IMG/VR virus record: IMGVR_UViG_3300045988_007243
Direction: 5' to 3' (one strand)
Length of the DNA: 64,000 nucleotides
From: a virus
Taxonomy: Duplodnaviria > Heunggongvirae > Uroviricota > Caudoviricetes
Position 1 is the stretch's first letter, and every line of letters starts with the position of its first letter. Under the pieces are notes generated by a model. The model made no database searches. It was given only the letters and a program-made list of their open reading frames with translations, and was not told the origin of the DNA. Below are positions 5,468-20,266 of the stretch, piece after piece. A program made the translations under genes and the position numbers.

Positions 5468-6067
5468 TTATTTTACCCCTTTGGAGTCTACATCTAGATG
5501 GATAGTATATTCTGGTGGCTCTTGTCCTTCTTCGTAAACTAACTCACCATCAGCAATGACACGCTCAATAATACTTCCACGTTCATCTTTCAGGACTGAA
5601 TTTTTTACAAGAGTTACAACAAGAGGTGCAGAATTTTCGAAATCTGTATTGAGATAAGTATAGTCATTCGGGATTGCTCCAGTATCTAGTACTGTGGCCC
5701 CCGTTTCTTCAAGGATTAAATCTCTGACTGAACTCATCTCTAATCGTTGTTTAAGCTCAAGCATGATACTGTGAGCACCCTTACCATTTACCGTAATCAA
5801 TACAGGAATCTGAAAAGCAATTCTGTAGCAAACTACATCATCCTCAACAAACTTATCAAGAACCCAACCATAAGGTGTTGCAGCATCTTGACAGTATACG
5901 GTAATAAATGGCTGGTCAGGTTTTAAACCTTTGTCATTTGAGTTATCAGAAGGGTAAGCTCTAATTACATTCGGTCTATTATTTTTATCACGAGCTAGTC
6001 TGTGACCAATAACATCCACTAAGGTTCTAACTAGACCTTTTTCAAGTTCTGCTGTTTCTAACTGCAT
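5468..6067 (-). CDS. neck/tail completion protein (hypothetical)
   Basis: 199 aa ORF between head and tail modules. Confidence 0.3.
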   Translation of the reverse strand: MQLETAELEKGLVRTLVDVIGHRLARDKNNRPNVIRAYPSDNSNDKGLKPDQPFITVYCQDAATPYGWVLDKFVEDDVVCYRIAFQIPVLITVNGKGAHSIMLELKQRLEMSSVRDLILEETGATVLDTGAIPNDYTYLNTDFENSAPLVVTLVKNSVLKDERGSIIERVIADGELVYEEGQEPPEYTIHLDVDSKGVK

Positions 6068-14638: not shown

Positions 14639-14714
14639 TTGGAGAATCCGAAGGGACTCGAACCCTTATAAACCTGTTTTGCAGACAGGCACATAGCCAT
14701 TTCTGTCACGGATT
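14639..14714 (-). tRNA. tRNA-Cys (GCA)
   Basis: Hand-folded cloverleaf: CCA encoded, 7-bp acceptor, T-loop ACTCGAA(rc), anticodon loop gives GCA. Confidence 0.7.
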
Positions 14715-17049: not shown

Positions 17050-17054
17050 TGAAA

Positions 17055-17141
17055 GAGGTCTGAAGTTGTGCCGCTAACTCAACTCCGTGGAATTTGTTAC
17101 GGTCTTCAGTTGACTCAAAGCGGTCTTTCACTTGACCTCTG
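17055..17141 (-). other. tRNA-sized structured element without canonical T-loop
   Basis: 87-nt interval in a tRNA-sized gap with perfectly paired 7-nt termini (agaggtc/gacctct) and internal ctgaag/cttcag repeat, but no GTTCRANY T-loop. Confidence 0.3.
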
Positions 17142-17145
17142 AATT

Positions 17146-17222
17146 GGTGCTGCTCACAGGACTTGAACCCGCATCTCCATCCTTACAAGGGATGTGTAAT
17201 AGCCAATTATACGAAAGCAGCA
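17146..17222 (-). tRNA. tRNA-Thr (UGU)
   Basis: CCA encoded, perfect anticodon stem catcc/ggatg, loop gives UGU. Confidence 0.6.
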
Positions 17223-17229
17223 TTAATTT

Positions 17230-17304
17230 GGAGCATCCAGAGGGAATCGAACCCTCAACCTCAGTTTGGAAGACTGTAATTTTCCCGTTTAAACTATGGA
17301 TGCA
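17230..17304 (-). tRNA. tRNA-Gly (UCC)
   Basis: Perfect acceptor gcatcca/tggatgc, perfect T-stem, U73, anticodon loop gives UCC. Confidence 0.65.
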
Positions 17305-17310
17305 CTAATT

Positions 17311-17386
17311 GGTGGAGAAGCAGGGAATTGAACCCTGTACTTAAGTTTGCAAAACTTATGTTTTAACCATGTAAACTACATCCCCA
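17311..17386 (-). tRNA. tRNA-Ala (UGC)
   Basis: Perfect T-, anticodon- and D-stems; anticodon UGC; G3-U70 wobble and A73 (Ala identity elements) present. Confidence 0.7.
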
Positions 17387-17392
17387 ATGTTT

Positions 17393-17468
17393 GGTACAGG
17401 TGGAGGGAATTGAACCCATCATCTTACTGATTAAGAGTCAGCCGCATAACCATTTTGCTACACCTGCA
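17393..17468 (-). tRNA. tRNA-Lys (CUU)
   Basis: CCA encoded, anticodon hairpin actga/tcagc with loop giving CUU; scaffold paralogous to 19090-19165. Confidence 0.55.
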
Positions 17469-17475
17469 TTAATTT

Positions 17476-17552
17476 GGTACACCTAGAGAGATTCGAACTC
17501 ACACTGAGCAGATTCTAAGTCTGCTGCCTCTACCAGTTGGGCTATAGGTGCA
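17476..17552 (-). tRNA. tRNA with Leu anticodon UAG, short variable arm
   Basis: CCA encoded, A73, perfect anticodon stem gcaga/tctgc, loop gives UAG; 5-nt variable region. Confidence 0.5.
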
Positions 17553-18005
17553 TTAAATCAAATGTCTTGAGAATTGACTGTGGCAATTTGGACACAAGAA
17601 CCGAAGATTCTCTTTTCTATCATCTAACCAGTTCTCGTTAATGTGGTCAACATCAAGAGTTAGAGGGTTATCCAACCAATACGGTAACTGACCACATTTA
17701 GAGCATTTGTATTCGACACCAGAGGCTATTAAAGCTCTTCTTAGTTGTGAAGACCTAGCTCTTTCACCAGATTCACGTAGAATTAGTATTTCTTCAGGCT
17801 TTCTTTTTGGTACAGTTTTAATCTTACCAGCCTTTTGTCCGAGGAAATGAGAAGTGTCTATTTCAAACTTCTCTATAACACGCTTTAGATGTGACTGAGA
17901 ACCACCTGCTGGTTTTCTCCCAAGCTTAATAAGTACTTCTCTGAATGATACTGAATCCTTTACTAAAGGCTCAAGAATATCTTTAGTCAAACTGCTACGT
18001 GCCAT
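17553..18005 (-). CDS. HNH homing endonuclease
   Basis: 150 aa; C-terminal HNH motif (LDVDHINENWLDDRKENLRFLCPNCH); free-standing inside tRNA array. Confidence 0.75.
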   Translation of the reverse strand: MARSSLTKDILEPLVKDSVSFREVLIKLGRKPAGGSQSHLKRVIEKFEIDTSHFLGQKAGKIKTVPKRKPEEILILRESGERARSSQLRRALIASGVEYKCSKCGQLPYWLDNPLTLDVDHINENWLDDRKENLRFLCPNCHSQFSRHLI

Positions 18006-18097
18006 GTGTCAATCTCCCATTAAACCTTTTTAGAGAACTTCTAAGAACCTAAGCAACAAGGTTCCACAACAAGCTGTAATAACCTTAGAAGCCCTCT

Positions 18098-18122
18098 AAA
18101 AAGACCTAAAAAGGTCTTTGCA
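18098..18122 (-). terminator. possible intrinsic terminator/hairpin
   Basis: AGACC-N5-GGTCT hairpin followed by a short U-tract on the minus strand. Confidence 0.3.
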
Positions 18123-18274
18123 TAGTCTTGTTTAATCTGGTGACTAGAACCTTTGGAGAGCTTGATATTATCTCTTCTCCGTGACACCTACTAGGTGCTT
18201 TATCAGTGTGTACGACAACACGAGGGATAAACCGAAAATGCGAGCAAGCATGGACGGTGTAAAATCTTATTAGG

Positions 18275-18362
18275 CGGTAAGTAAAGGAGTCGAACCCTCA
18301 CCGTATCTCTACAGTGGCAACAGTTTTCAAGACTGTTTGGCTGCCATTAGCCGCTACCTACC
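18275..18362 (-). tRNA. tRNA-Ser (UGA), long variable arm
   Basis: Perfect anticodon stem acagt/actgt, loop gives UGA, 20-nt variable arm; CCA not encoded. Confidence 0.6.
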
Positions 18363-18375
18363 CCTAATAAGACTT

Positions 18376-18458
18376 TGGCATGGGACGGAGGAGTTGAACC
18401 CCTTTGAAACGGTTTTGGAGGCCGTTGCTCATGCCTTAGAGTCTTAACATCGTCCCAT
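18376..18458 (-). tRNA. tRNA, identity unresolved (possibly Trp CCA)
   Basis: CCA encoded, perfect acceptor atgggac/gtcccat, canonical T-loop; internal fold ambiguous, about 7 nt longer than class I. Confidence 0.4.
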
Positions 18459-18601
18459 ACTATAATTCGAAGCTCACCGTATTATCTCAACACTGTAAAG
18501 CCCCTTCTCAGATTATTTACATGTTCTGGAAAACATGAGATACAGACCACCTCCCTACAGGAAGACCCGCTTAGGTCGTCTAAGTAATCTGCTAACTAAA
18601 T

Positions 18602-18683
18602 TGGTCGAGGCGGCAGGACTCGAACCCGCATACTCCACTTACTCGGTTAACGGCGGTTTAGAAGACCGCTGAGATACGCCCCG
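18602..18683 (-). tRNA. atypical tRNA-like gene (anticodon hairpin reads UCU, Arg)
   Basis: CCA encoded, acceptor and T-arm canonical, perfect 5-bp hairpin with loop UCU, but no room for a normal D-arm. Confidence 0.35.
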
Positions 18684-18931
18684 TAATTATCTTTAAAGAC
18701 TCTCTTAGAAAGCCCTTAAAGATGCCCACCTTATTAATCATACCGTGGGCGAGTACGCCAAATTCTTTGATGAGGGATTGGAAGACCTCACTGGTGTTTA
18801 GCCTATCAAGCTACTGCCAGAAAAACATTGTCGTTTGCATTTATTTTAAATTTGCAAAATAGACGCTACGCAACGAAAACTAAGGTTAGTATAAAGTAGT
18901 CACATCTCAATGTCAACAACTTTATTGAAAT

Positions 18932-19007
18932 TGGTACTGGTAGGTGGAATCGAACCACCGATGTTCCCTTATCAGGGGAGTGTTATAACCTTCTTAACTA
19001 TACCAGC
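18932..19007 (-). tRNA. tRNA-Ile (GAU)
   Basis: Perfect T-stem ggtgg/ccacc, perfect D-stem, anticodon loop gives GAU. Confidence 0.6.
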
Positions 19008-19008
19008 T

Positions 19009-19085
19009 TGGAGGTTCAGATGGGAATCGAACCCACATTCATAGGGCTTATGAGACCCTTGCATTACCTTATCTGCGACTGAACC
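19009..19085 (-). tRNA. tRNA-Met (CAU) (or lysidine Ile)
   Basis: Perfect acceptor ggttcag/ctgaacc, anticodon stem with GGG/CCC, loop gives CAU. Confidence 0.6.
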
Positions 19086-19089
19086 ATAT

Positions 19090-19165
19090 TGGTAGAAGTG
19101 GAGGGATTCGAACCCATCGCCTGTCAGATTAAAAGTCTGCCGCATCACCATTCTGCTACACTTCC
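19090..19165 (-). tRNA. tRNA-Lys (UUU)
   Basis: CCA encoded, anticodon loop TTAAAAG(rc) gives UUU. Confidence 0.55.
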
Positions 19166-19170
19166 ATTAA

Positions 19171-19312
19171 ATTATCTTTGTAGATAAGCTACCCAGACTT
19201 GCTTAAGGTCTGTAGCGATGTGCCTTTTTGGGTTTAAATCTAGAATTTACCCTTTCACCCTTTGTGGTCGCATACTCACAGGTAAGCTTAATAACTTATC
19301 TACAAAGATAAT
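19171..19312. repeat. 18-bp perfect inverted repeat pair flanking a 106-bp spacer
   Basis: attatctttgtagataag at 19171-19188 is the exact reverse complement of cttatctacaaagataat at 19295-19312. Confidence 0.6.
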
Positions 19313-19365
19313 TACCAGACCGTTGTTTATCATCTTAAGTGCTACCATTACACCAACTCGACATC

Positions 19366-19390
19366 TGCCGAGTGAAGGAATCGAACCTTC
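19366..19390 (-). pseudogene. tRNA 3' fragment (acceptor + T-arm only)
   Basis: gccgagt + gaagg-AATCGAA-ccttc matches a tRNA 3' half but no matching 5' half follows. Confidence 0.35.
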
Positions 19391-19424
19391 GCCTTTTCTT
19401 TACCGAGAAATAGATTGTTTAAGT

Positions 19425-19452
19425 TTTGCTGTAAACGGTCTTCTGTAAATTT
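19425..19452. repeat. 28-bp repeat tttgctgtaaacggtcttctgtaaattt, copy 1
   Basis: Identical 28-mer at 19993-20020; diverged copies at 19512-19536 and 20161-20187. Confidence 0.6.
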
Positions 19453-19619
19453 GTTGAGCCAGACCAAGTTTTAAATTTTTCAAAATTAAATTGGCTTGAA
19501 ATTTTAAGTAACTTGCTGAATTTGGTCTTCTGCTCCTTTAAAGAATACTCGTAAGAACCCTTTAAGGGAGGGGCTAAATAGCCCTCTCAAAACATCATTT
19601 TGAAATACTTATTATAAGT

Positions 19620-19696
19620 TGGCGGCTACGATGAGACTTGAACTCACATCATCTCCCGTGACAGGGGAGTATTTTCTCCAGTTAAACTACATAGCC
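19620..19696 (-). tRNA. tRNA-Asp (GUC)
   Basis: CCA encoded, perfect anticodon stem ctccc/gggag, loop gives GUC. Confidence 0.65.
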
Positions 19697-19701
19697 TTTA
19701 T

Positions 19702-19789
19702 TGGTGTGCCGTGTAGGAGTCGAACCTACCGAGTCTCAATGACAAGGGATTTACAGTCCCCACCGCTACCATCTACGGGATAACGACAC
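19702..19789 (-). tRNA. tRNA-Tyr (GUA), long variable arm
   Basis: Perfect T-stem, anticodon loop gives GUA, about 15-nt variable arm. Confidence 0.6.
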
Positions 19790-19801
19790 ATTTTAATTTA
19801 T

Positions 19802-19857
19802 ATTCAGGATAAGGACTTGCACCTTACAAATCGGTGAGCAATCGCTTCTCTCCTAAA
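19802..19857 (-). pseudogene. truncated tRNA-like element (56 nt)
   Basis: Acceptor-like ends pair, perfect T-stem taagg/cctta around a mutated T-loop ACTTGCA; too short for a tRNA. Confidence 0.3.
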
Positions 19858-19992: not shown

Positions 19993-20020
19993 ATTTGCTG
20001 TAAACGGTCTTCTGTAAATT
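19993..20020. repeat. 28-bp repeat tttgctgtaaacggtcttctgtaaattt, copy 2
   Basis: Identical to 19425-19452; abuts the 3' end of the tRNA at 20020-20096. Confidence 0.6.
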
Positions 20021-20096
20021 TGGAGGCGGGTGAAGGAGTCGAACCTGCCGATACCATGCTAATGAGACATGTGAGACGCCCTTTCTCTATACCCGC
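20020..20096 (-). tRNA. tRNA-Met/Ile2 (CAU), second CAU species
   Basis: CCA encoded, anticodon stem catgc/acatg, loop gives CAU; position 1-72 unpaired. Confidence 0.5.
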
Positions 20097-20188
20097 AATT
20101 CTTAATGACCAGACCAAATCTCTTCTTTGTCCGATTTACCTTCAGATGAATAAGATTAAGTTTGCTGTAATTGGTCTTCTGTCAAAAC

Positions 20189-20266
20189 TGGCGTTCCAGA
20201 AGGGATTTGAACCCTCAAATATCCACTTTGAAAGAGTGGTGACTATACCATTTTGTCTACTGGAAC
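20189..20266 (-). tRNA. tRNA-Glu (UUC)
   Basis: Perfect acceptor gttccag/ctggaac, perfect anticodon stem ccact/agtgg, loop gives UUC. Confidence 0.65.

Follow-up and report, generated by a model that had tools for sequence, protein, structure and literature searches.

A putative core-permuted tRNA-Arg(UCU) gene and other atypical RNA elements in the tRNA array of a Felix O1-like phage

In the present study, we analysed a 64,000-nucleotide (nt) stretch of viral DNA (IMG/VR record IMGVR_UViG_3300045988_007243; hereafter the window, taken at its full length), which belongs to a Felix O1-like phage (Ounavirinae, Felixounavirus) with an identity of up to 97% to its relatives. ARAGORN detected 25 conventional tRNA genes on the minus strand between positions 14640 and 20350, and its calls in this array included none for Trp and none with the Arg anticodon UCU. 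Homing endonuclease genes also occur there, and their positions in the array vary among relatives. An original prediction had pointed to four damaged or unusual tRNA-like loci, which were proposed to be decay products of endonuclease-driven rearrangement or structured RNAs with other roles. All four (loci A, B, C and D) were found in spacers of the array, at the predicted positions or at most 1-2 nt away, and on the minus strand, which is the array strand and on which they were read. The coordinates of all features are collected in Table 1. The main subject is locus B, which we propose to be a tRNA-Arg(UCU) gene with a permuted core.

The sequence of locus B is CGGGGCG-UA-UCUCA-GCGGU-CUUCUAA-ACCGC-CGUUAACCGAGUAAGUGGAGUAU-GCGGG-UUCGAGU-CCUGC-CGCCUCG-A-CCA. 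The acceptor stem, T arm and UCU hairpin that had been predicted were all present: the acceptor/T limb consisted of a 7-base-pair (bp) acceptor stem (CGGGGCG/CGCCUCG), A73, CCA and a T arm with a 5-bp stem (GCGGG-UUCGAGU-CCUGC), and the anticodon arm (GCGGU-CUUCUAA-ACCGC) had a 5-bp stem and a 7-nt loop with U33 and a purine at 37. No D hairpin was found at positions 9-26. The prediction that there was no room for a D arm was borne out in that the usual site, from position 9 to the anticodon stem, holds 5 nt only (UCUCA); it did not hold in that an equivalent of the D stem (CUC/GAG) flanks the anticodon arm, the partner GAG and the loop-like AAGUGGA sitting in a 23-nt "variable" region 3' of the anticodon stem. 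ARAGORN made no call at locus B. The Rfam tRNA model (RF00005) scored it at 31.7 bits, above the gathering score of 29, with an alignment that deleted the D arm and inserted 20 nt in the variable region; recovery of a tRNA by software, which the original prediction had named as evidence against itself, was thus obtained for this locus, and no Rfam match was obtained for A, C or D. Judged by its sequence, locus B is by most criteria a tRNA-Arg and departs in a single one, the D hairpin at the usual place.

In a distant BLAST search of the array, the 80-nt stretch of locus B alone matched unrelated phages, with 84-88% identity (a jumbo phage, a T5-like phage, Mydovirus, Justusliebigvirus and Kuravirus). 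Further family members were retrieved by stepwise-loosened pattern scans of IMG/VR, followed by a filter for acceptor, anticodon and T stems. The pattern scans yielded at least 140 distinct B-type sequences, and the family in total comprised at least 213. Without exception in the 140-sequence set, the base triplet immediately 5' of the anticodon stem could pair with the triplet that precedes a conserved UAAnnGGA. The resulting pairing, termed helix P, occurred in forms that included CUC/GAG, CGG/CCG, CCC/GGG, CAC/GUG, CAU/AUG, CGC/GCG, CAG/CUG, CUU/AAG, CGA/UCG, CAA/UUG, UCC/GGA, ACC/GGU and AAA/UUU. When 79 sequences were aligned with MAFFT, 96.7% of cells were paired, compared with 61.9% after shuffling, and the covariation score was 0.933, compared with 0.233 for shuffled alignments (reached by 0 of 500) and 0.13-0.16 for slid partners. 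Compensatory changes were observed at all three pairs of helix P and all five pairs of the anticodon stem; the acceptor stem (98.6% of cells paired) and the T stem (99.2%) covaried as well. The same statistics were obtained with an independent set of 115 model-aligned sequences, in which all four helices covaried. A covariance model built from the 79-sequence alignment (R1) gave one strong match in the window, locus B itself (73.6 bits, E = 8e-19), while canonical tRNAs scored no higher than 33 bits.

Several other structures were considered for locus B. The UCU hairpin could be ruled out as its D arm because helix P covaries over more than 12 pair sets. A small hairpin in the 23-nt region (YCG-AGUAAn-YGG) was rejected since its changes were one-sided and helix P covaried instead. 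An intron or insertion in a normal tRNA was also ruled out, because excision of the 23 nt leaves locus B without a D arm. An outer helix, in which positions 9-11 would pair with the three bases following GGA, was dropped from the model as not general; its support (AGC/GCU, AGU/ACU and AAC/GUU in A1) was confined to the subfamily with an 8-nt 5' linker.

To describe the identity of the family, we compared the anticodons of the 213 distinct members. Arginine anticodons were present in 210, and the individual counts were UCU 184, CCU 11, ACG 7, UCG 7, GCG 1, CAU 2 and UAU 1; the predominance of UCU is biased because the retrieval patterns demanded CUUCUAA. R1 also found second to fourth copies in the same contigs, with anticodons ACG, UCG, CCU and GCG. 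UA at positions 8-9 was present in 213 of 213 members, AA before nnGG in 207 and AU directly 5' of the T stem in 200. GG was followed by A in 209 of the 210 members with arginine anticodons and by U in the two members with CAU. The discriminator was G or A in 119 of 140 sequences, and CCA was encoded in 73 of 140. It has been reported that the bacterial arginine identity set consists of A/G73, A20, C35 and U/G36, with A20 as the main determinant for arginyl-tRNA synthetase (ArgRS) (PMC9976931). Locus B matches this set with GGA, C35, U36 and A73. In addition, nucleotides fitting U8, A14, G18 G19 and R15:Y48 are near-invariant in the family, although their roles are assigned from conservation. 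Collectively, the four covarying helices, the invariant bases and the restriction to arginine are firm structural facts of the family.

A few members with CAU, GAU or UAU anticodons were also observed (L150 4321-4397, L178 2786-2862, L071 1078-1153 and L094 3583-3659), and those with CAU and GAU carry GGU in place of GGA. U20 is listed as a determinant for isoleucine (PMC9976931); GGU in these members fits this assignment and suggests switches of identity within the class.

The genomic position of locus B was then compared among related phages. A canonical 77-nt tRNA-Arg(UCU) occupied the same slot in pSJ21 (Felixounavirus) and PC79-13 (Suspvirus), with both flanks near-identical to those in the window; the slot was also canonical in SUSP2, mistaenkt and Michonne, in which one or both flanks diverge. 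These results demonstrated that the rewired and canonical forms are related by a clean allelic replacement. The rewired allele was present at 95% identity or more in about 107 of approximately 277 related records. In three viral contigs, all Arg tRNAs were rewired (L077, with UCU, UCG, ACG and CCU; L131, with UCU, GCG and UCG; L168, with UCU and ACG), and they sat among up to 25 ordinary tRNAs. As for codon demand, AGA accounted for 36% of arginine codons (14.8 per 1000) and AGG for 10% in the 41 long open reading frames (ORFs) of the window. The Felix O1 genome paper reported AGA as over-represented and pointed out that the tRNA expected for this codon was not found (PMC3185647).

The family is widespread, being present in 263 cultured-phage records and many viral metagenome contigs, and the cultured-phage copies are almost always unannotated or labelled "tRNA-OTHER". 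A scan of one bacterial genome per species returned about 44 true members, including Rhizobiales isolates and large tRNA arrays of Acidobacteria. Within this bacterial set, Acidobacteriaceae bacterium KBS 96 (L255) carries a rewired tRNA-Arg(UCU) at 5784-5858 in a 25-gene tRNA array, and Rhizobiales isolates L202, L210, L234, L238, L251, L254 and L256 carry rewired genes as solitary copies beside ordinary tRNAs. In many lineages, an ORF begins 5-60 nt downstream of the rewired gene, and HNH, HNH_3, HNH_5 and GIY-YIG genes are among these ORFs in separate lineages. Eight of the ten downstream ORFs scanned matched HNH-type, endonuclease VII or GIY-YIG families, four of them above the Pfam curated cut-off, and annotated examples are found in SP22, PHA46 and Roth39. 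The rewired gene probably moves across phage families together with homing endonuclease genes.

On the basis of these results, we propose that locus B is a functional tRNA-Arg(UCU) that reads AGA and AGG for the phage, in which the three-dimensional modules of a tRNA are kept and threaded in a different order (probability about 0.72). Roles are given in canonical numbering and were assigned from conserved nucleotides. The block of the D 5' strand and D loop (10-21) would be swapped with the adjacent block of the D 3' strand and anticodon arm (22-45). The chain would run from 1-7 through U8 and A9, N-C-U-C as 22-25 and A or C as 26 to the anticodon arm 27-43; it would continue with a variable-loop-like linker of 4-10 nt, G-A-G-U as 10-13 and AAnnGGA as the D loop 14-20; and it would end with about 4 nt closing on U48, the T arm 49-65, acceptor 66-72, discriminator 73 and CCA 74-76. 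The "22-25" strand would lead, just as it does in a normal tRNA, into the 5' side of the anticodon stem, and the D-loop nucleotides would trail the "10-13" strand at the normal spacing. Helix P would then stack on the anticodon stem like a D stem, G18 G19 would dock on the T loop, and the invariant bases would fit U8:A14, A15:U48 and A20 in the variable pocket. A20, C35, U36 and A73 would allow charging by the host ArgRS, and RNase P and EF-Tu could accept the RNA via its normal acceptor/T limb. Such an arrangement may have originated if the block of D and anticodon arms was duplicated in tandem within the gene and the first D half and the last anticodon half were subsequently lost.

Decoding by this RNA is a well-supported prediction, for which the allelic replacement, the usage of AGA and the rewired Arg-only tRNA sets give indirect support, and several points weigh against it and against the proposed fold. 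Helix P has only 3 bp and is absent from the single-sequence fold of locus B, which is itself no more stable than shuffles (z = -0.23). The threading is read from conserved nucleotides rather than from a model or a measurement. That ArgRS, EF-Tu and the ribosome would tolerate a bulge of 4-10 nt and the altered connectivity is presumed, and expression, processing, aminoacylation and decoding are predictions from sequence. With regard to arginine identity, the unbiased sample is limited to 29 neighbours that the covariance model detected (26 with arginine anticodons), and one UAU member retains GGA.

An alternative explanation is that the RNA mimics a tRNA and does not decode, acting as a decoy or sponge for a nuclease or modification enzyme directed at tRNA-Arg, or as a regulator of ArgRS. 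The non-canonical connectivity of the core, the rejection by ARAGORN and the unencoded CCA in about half of the members would agree with mimicry, and phage tRNAs have been proposed to counter tRNA-targeting defences (PMC10264068). We nevertheless consider this unlikely: locus B replaces the sole tRNA-Arg(UCU) allele in phages heavy in AGA; the full ArgRS identity set and the normal acceptor/T limb are conserved; and the occurrence of up to four rewired arginine isoacceptors with no canonical Arg tRNA nearby suits a decoding set better than a single-target decoy.

The endonuclease genes in the array bear on two further explanations. According to the decay view of the original prediction, all four loci would be pseudogenes left by endonuclease-driven rearrangement. 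Homing endonuclease genes interspersed in the array do differ between relatives, loci C and D resemble partial tRNAs, and the array already holds 25 conventional tRNA genes. For locus B, this view is contradicted by the covariation and the invariant, putatively tertiary nucleotides across unrelated phage families, by the retained identity nucleotides and by the precise replacement of a canonical allele; we could not confirm that it is damaged, and it is a member of a large covarying family. For locus A, identity reaches 95-100% among 254 records and the core stays invariant in another phage subfamily, while the cores of C and D are kept where the flanks diverge and the hairpin beside C covaries. 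Decay of the four loci is therefore very improbable. It is also conceivable that locus B is conserved as DNA, as a recognition site of a homing endonuclease or a recombination site, and this would be in line with the several families of endonuclease genes that lie immediately downstream in many lineages. Compensatory changes in four helices are the signature of an RNA structure and not of protein-binding DNA, however, and 161 of 217 members have no ORF of at least 90 amino acids starting within about 70 nt downstream, and hence no adjacent endonuclease gene. We regard a DNA site as extremely improbable.

The proposed rewired tRNA was compared with known systems. Like canonical tRNA-Arg(UCU) (the pSJ21 allele and E. 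coli argU), locus B has a 7-bp acceptor stem, A/G73, CCA, an identical CUUCUAA loop, a T arm with UUCGA(A/G)U, and nucleotides fitting U8, A14, G18 G19 and A20, and it occupies the same genomic slot as in pSJ21. In contrast to the canonical form, the strand assigned to the 3' side of its D stem precedes the anticodon arm, those assigned to the 5' side and the D loop come after this arm, no D hairpin is formed, a linker of 4-10 nt bulges out, and the D-stem equivalent consists of 3 bp and one non-pair. Soma et al. (2007) reportedly described permuted tRNA genes in Cyanidioschyzon merolae, in which the 3' half precedes the 5' half and a circular intermediate gives rise to a canonical mature tRNA. 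Locus B shares with these genes a rearranged order of segments, but differs from them in that the 5' strand of the acceptor stem comes first and the 3' strand with CCA last. With normal termini and a swap confined to internal blocks, the rewiring would persist in the mature RNA. D-armless mitochondrial tRNAs, such as mammalian tRNA-Ser(AGY) and Ascaris tRNA-Ser(UCU), are three-armed and lack the D hairpin (PMC7609411), and locus B likewise has none between its acceptor and anticodon stems. Those tRNAs are organellar and flexible, with a short connector and loss of the D-loop/T-loop contacts; the phage and bacterial RNA, unlike them, carries a GG-containing equivalent of the D loop, a helix substituting for the D stem, bases fitting U8/A14 and A15/U48, and a standard T loop. 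Allo-tRNAs and (8/4) tRNAs are non-canonical tRNAs from metagenomes and phages that standard finders have overlooked (PMC5389517). Allo-tRNAs differ from locus B, which has a 7/5 limb, in their changed acceptor/T split, long variable arms, serine identity and normal order of arms. We found no description of the rewired class, or of the phage tmRNA-like RNA described below, in the full-text literature and two reviews (PMC7609411, PMC5389517), a coverage that leaves out most subscription journals, so that an earlier description is possible.

It is possible, although we hold it doubtful, that phages and some bacterial mobile elements keep an undescribed class of functional core-permuted tRNAs that is essentially arginine-only. 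Its rewiring may have been selected if it hides the RNA from host nucleases or enzymes that read the D arm while A20 is still found by ArgRS; this adaptive reason is speculation. Provided that the rewired RNA is indeed charged and takes part in decoding, the L-shape of tRNA could be built from a different chain order in bacterial translation, which would bear on the connections needed by ArgRS, RNase P, EF-Tu, modification enzymes and the ribosome. A rewired tRNA would also be a natural scaffold for engineered or orthogonal tRNAs. Hundreds of sequenced phages (Felix O1 relatives, phi92, PBECO4 and T5-like phages among them) probably hold an uncounted tRNA-Arg, and uncounted tRNAs would alter analyses of codon compensation; the AGA tRNA was explicitly missed in the Felix O1 paper.

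Table 1. Positions in the window of locus B with its segments, and of the other elements considered.
Feature	Position	Strand	Details
Putative core-permuted tRNA-Arg(UCU) gene, locus B	18602-18683	minus	82 nt, CCA encoded
B acceptor 5' strand	18683-18677	minus	
B U8 A9	18676-18675	minus	
B U (22')	18674	minus	
B helix P 5' strand	18673-18671	minus	CUC
B A26	18670	minus	
B anticodon stem	18669-18665 with 18657-18653	minus	
B anticodon loop	18664-18658	minus	CUUCUAA; anticodon 18662-18660
B linker	18652-18645	minus	CGUUAACC
B helix P 3' strand	18644-18642	minus	GAG
B U	18641	minus	
B D-loop-like segment	18640-18634	minus	AAGUGGA; G18 G19 A20 = 18636-18634
B GUAU	18633-18630	minus	
B T arm	18629-18613	minus	
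B acceptor 3' strand	18612-18606	minus	
B A73	18605	minus	
B CCA	18604-18602	minus	
Locus A, stable hairpin	17054-17140	minus	87 nt; fills tRNA-Thr/tRNA-Val spacer; closing stem AGAGGUC/GACCUCU
Locus C, T-arm-like hairpin and second hairpin	19356-19390	minus	T-arm 19374-19390; ACUCG-GCAGAUGU-CGAGU 19356-19373
Locus D, tRNA "top half"	19802-19857	minus	56 nt; stem UUUAGGA/UCCUGAA (7 bp), hairpin UAAGG-UGCAAGU-CCUUA
Atypical tRNA-Trp(CCA), unannotated	18376-18458	minus	8-bp acceptor stem, 4-bp T stem, CCA encoded
tmRNA-like tag-coding RNA, mRNA-like domain only	18690-18881	minus	just upstream of locus B, same transcription direction
Tag frame	18838-18806	minus	GCA AAC GAC AAU GUU UUU CUG GCA GUA GCU UGA = ANDNVFLAVA*
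Sigma-70-like promoter	18916-18888	minus	TTGACA-17-TATACT; 11/12 consensus positions; consensus match only
29-nt repeat, four copies	19425-19453, 19512-19540, 19994-20022, 20161-20189 (plus-strand coordinates)	minus	TTTGCTGTAAACGGTCTTCTGTAAATTTG; each right after a tRNA

The other three loci were also conserved. As had been predicted, locus A has perfectly paired 7-nt termini and no T loop. Its folding energy was -30 kcal/mol (z = -3.7), a stability that none of 200 shuffles attained. It was found in 260 phage records, 254 of them with at least 95% identity, and its apical 27 nt (GUCAACUGAAGACCGUAACAAAUUCCA) are invariant. A homolog of about 82% identity lies directly after tRNA-Gly in the Vequintavirinae phage TH18 and in one related contig, and in TH18 the closing stem is changed to AGAUGUC/GACAUCU, a single compensatory pair. 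The structure rests on this one pair because a viral scan for more divergent homologs with the invariant core returned only Ounavirinae and one Vequintavirinae-type contig. Locus A is not a tRNA and is regarded as a candidate conserved spacer RNA, which agrees with the suggestion of structured RNAs with other roles. T4 species 1 and 2 RNAs (rnaC and rnaD) are stable structured RNAs in a phage tRNA cluster, co-transcribed with the tRNAs; locus A is comparable to them in its setting, and it is shorter and has no encoded CCA.

Locus C is, as described earlier, a 3' half only: it has a perfect T-arm hairpin (GAAGG-UUCGAUU-CCUUC) and lacks the D arm, the anticodon arm and the 5' strand of the acceptor stem. 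Three genera (Felixounavirus, Suspvirus and Mooglevirus) share the T-arm hairpin unchanged but differ in both flanks; in the second hairpin, ACUCG..CGAGU is changed to ACACG..CGUGU in Suspvirus, which is compensatory. The T-arm hairpin with its T run also fits a terminator pattern on the plus strand. Locus D has the reported length and mutated T loop (UGCAAGU, U55 to G); a 24-nt segment takes the place of its D arm and anticodon arm, CCA is not encoded, and its T arm is similar to that of tRNA-Val (family D3). Its fold was more stable on the minus strand (z = -3.1) than on the plus strand (z = -0.8). It occurred in 107 records, all Ounavirinae, and a comparison with Michonne gave 2 changes in the 56-nt core and about 8 in 24 flanking nt. 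A, C and D all have cores conserved across genera. For C and D, the look of tRNA fragments makes an origin by rearrangement plausible, but passive decay is unlikely because the cores are far better conserved than the flanks (Felixounavirus, Suspvirus and Mooglevirus) and the hairpin beside C covaries; locus C probably began as a tRNA fragment and is nevertheless maintained. The most likely role of loci A, C and D is that of processing or regulatory RNAs, which would be set free from the polycistronic transcript of the array.

In addition to these loci, we identified an atypical tRNA-Trp(CCA), at which ARAGORN reported nothing and for which the best Rfam match was tRNA-Sec, with 23 bits only. 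A conserved 9-nt insert (AUGUUAAGA) separates its acceptor and D stems, and the D stem (CUC/GAG) closes a GG-containing loop. In its acceptor/T arrangement it appears to be 8/4, like the (8/4) tRNAs. Comparison of Felixounavirus, Mooglevirus/Suspvirus and a Pectobacterium phage revealed compensatory changes in the anticodon stem (AACGG/CCGUU, GUAAG/CUUAC and GUAGG/CCUAC in three phages), the D stem (CUC/GAG, CAC/GUG and ACA/UGU in three phages) and the acceptor stem (AUG/CAU vs GCG/CGC). The gene was present in 236 phage records and was never annotated as a tRNA, so that Ounavirinae probably hold an uncounted tRNA-Trp too. Together with locus B, it would make the phage set complete for all 20 amino acids.

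An RNA resembling the tag-coding part of transfer-messenger RNA (tmRNA) was found just upstream of locus B. It shares with tmRNA (RF00023, RF04321) a resume context (AUAAAU-GCA) and a tag frame of the ANDxxxLAVA type, with a hairpin downstream of the frame. The tags of five phage groups (ANDNVFLAVA*, ANDNTFLAVA*, ANDDVVLMAA*, ANEEMYLAVA* and ANDAQFLAVA*) have the resume codon and hydrophobic tail of tmRNA tags, and in an alignment with four other phage families the tag frame was kept and the hairpins covaried. The Rfam models tmRNA and tmRNA_permuted scored 16-30 bits, below gathering. Unlike in tmRNA, no tRNA-like domain (acceptor stem, T arm or CCA) was detected at 18690-18881 by ARAGORN or Rfam, and the match to tmRNA was confined to the tag region. 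Homologs occur in 610 phage records, none of them annotated, including Ackermannviridae (Vi01, T751), Schitoviridae (TR2), Klebsiella/Salmonella phages of about 46 kb and Erwinia phages; with its wide distribution in phages, this copy of the tag-coding part of tmRNA merits its own study. Locus B was considered as the missing tRNA-like domain and rejected, since each element is found alone elsewhere and pSJ21 has a canonical tRNA-Arg behind the element. In Klebsiella phage ZCKp20p (L260, 48.8 kb, NC_071149.1 24578-27668), about 240 nt separate the tmRNA-like element from a downstream tRNA-Arg(UCU), an order that the window shows as well, and a TnpB-family gene is located about 800 nt from the element.

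A sigma-70-like promoter sequence faces the tmRNA-like RNA, locus B, tRNA-Trp and tRNA-Ser(UGA). The region held 7 promoter-like sites, compared with 9.0 expected from shuffles, and its function as a promoter is therefore putative. The 29-nt repeat may act as a promoter (TTTACA...TTTAAT) or form an RNA stem; as a sigma-70 promoter it is suggestive (TTTACA-N17-19-TTTAAT) but fails the -10 rule of the scan. Each copy is partly complementary to a ACGGTCTGG or TTGGTCTGG motif about 50-130 nt downstream, with GU/AC changed to AA/UU between copies, and the repeat and the invariant core of locus A have the 9-mer GAAGACCGU in common. Three further inverted repeats were observed. A 22-nt inverted repeat (19170-19191 / 19292-19313, 95% complementary) encloses 100 nt by tRNA-Lys(UUU) and could form a large hairpin, and one of 14 nt (18261-18274 / 18363-18376) flanks tRNA-Ser(UGA) and lengthens its acceptor stem. 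Finally, a hairpin of 20 nt (18026-18045 / 18084-18103, 90% complementary) lies in the leader of the ORF starting at 18005; in Michonne and mistaenkt, this ORF carries the annotation of an HNH endonuclease.

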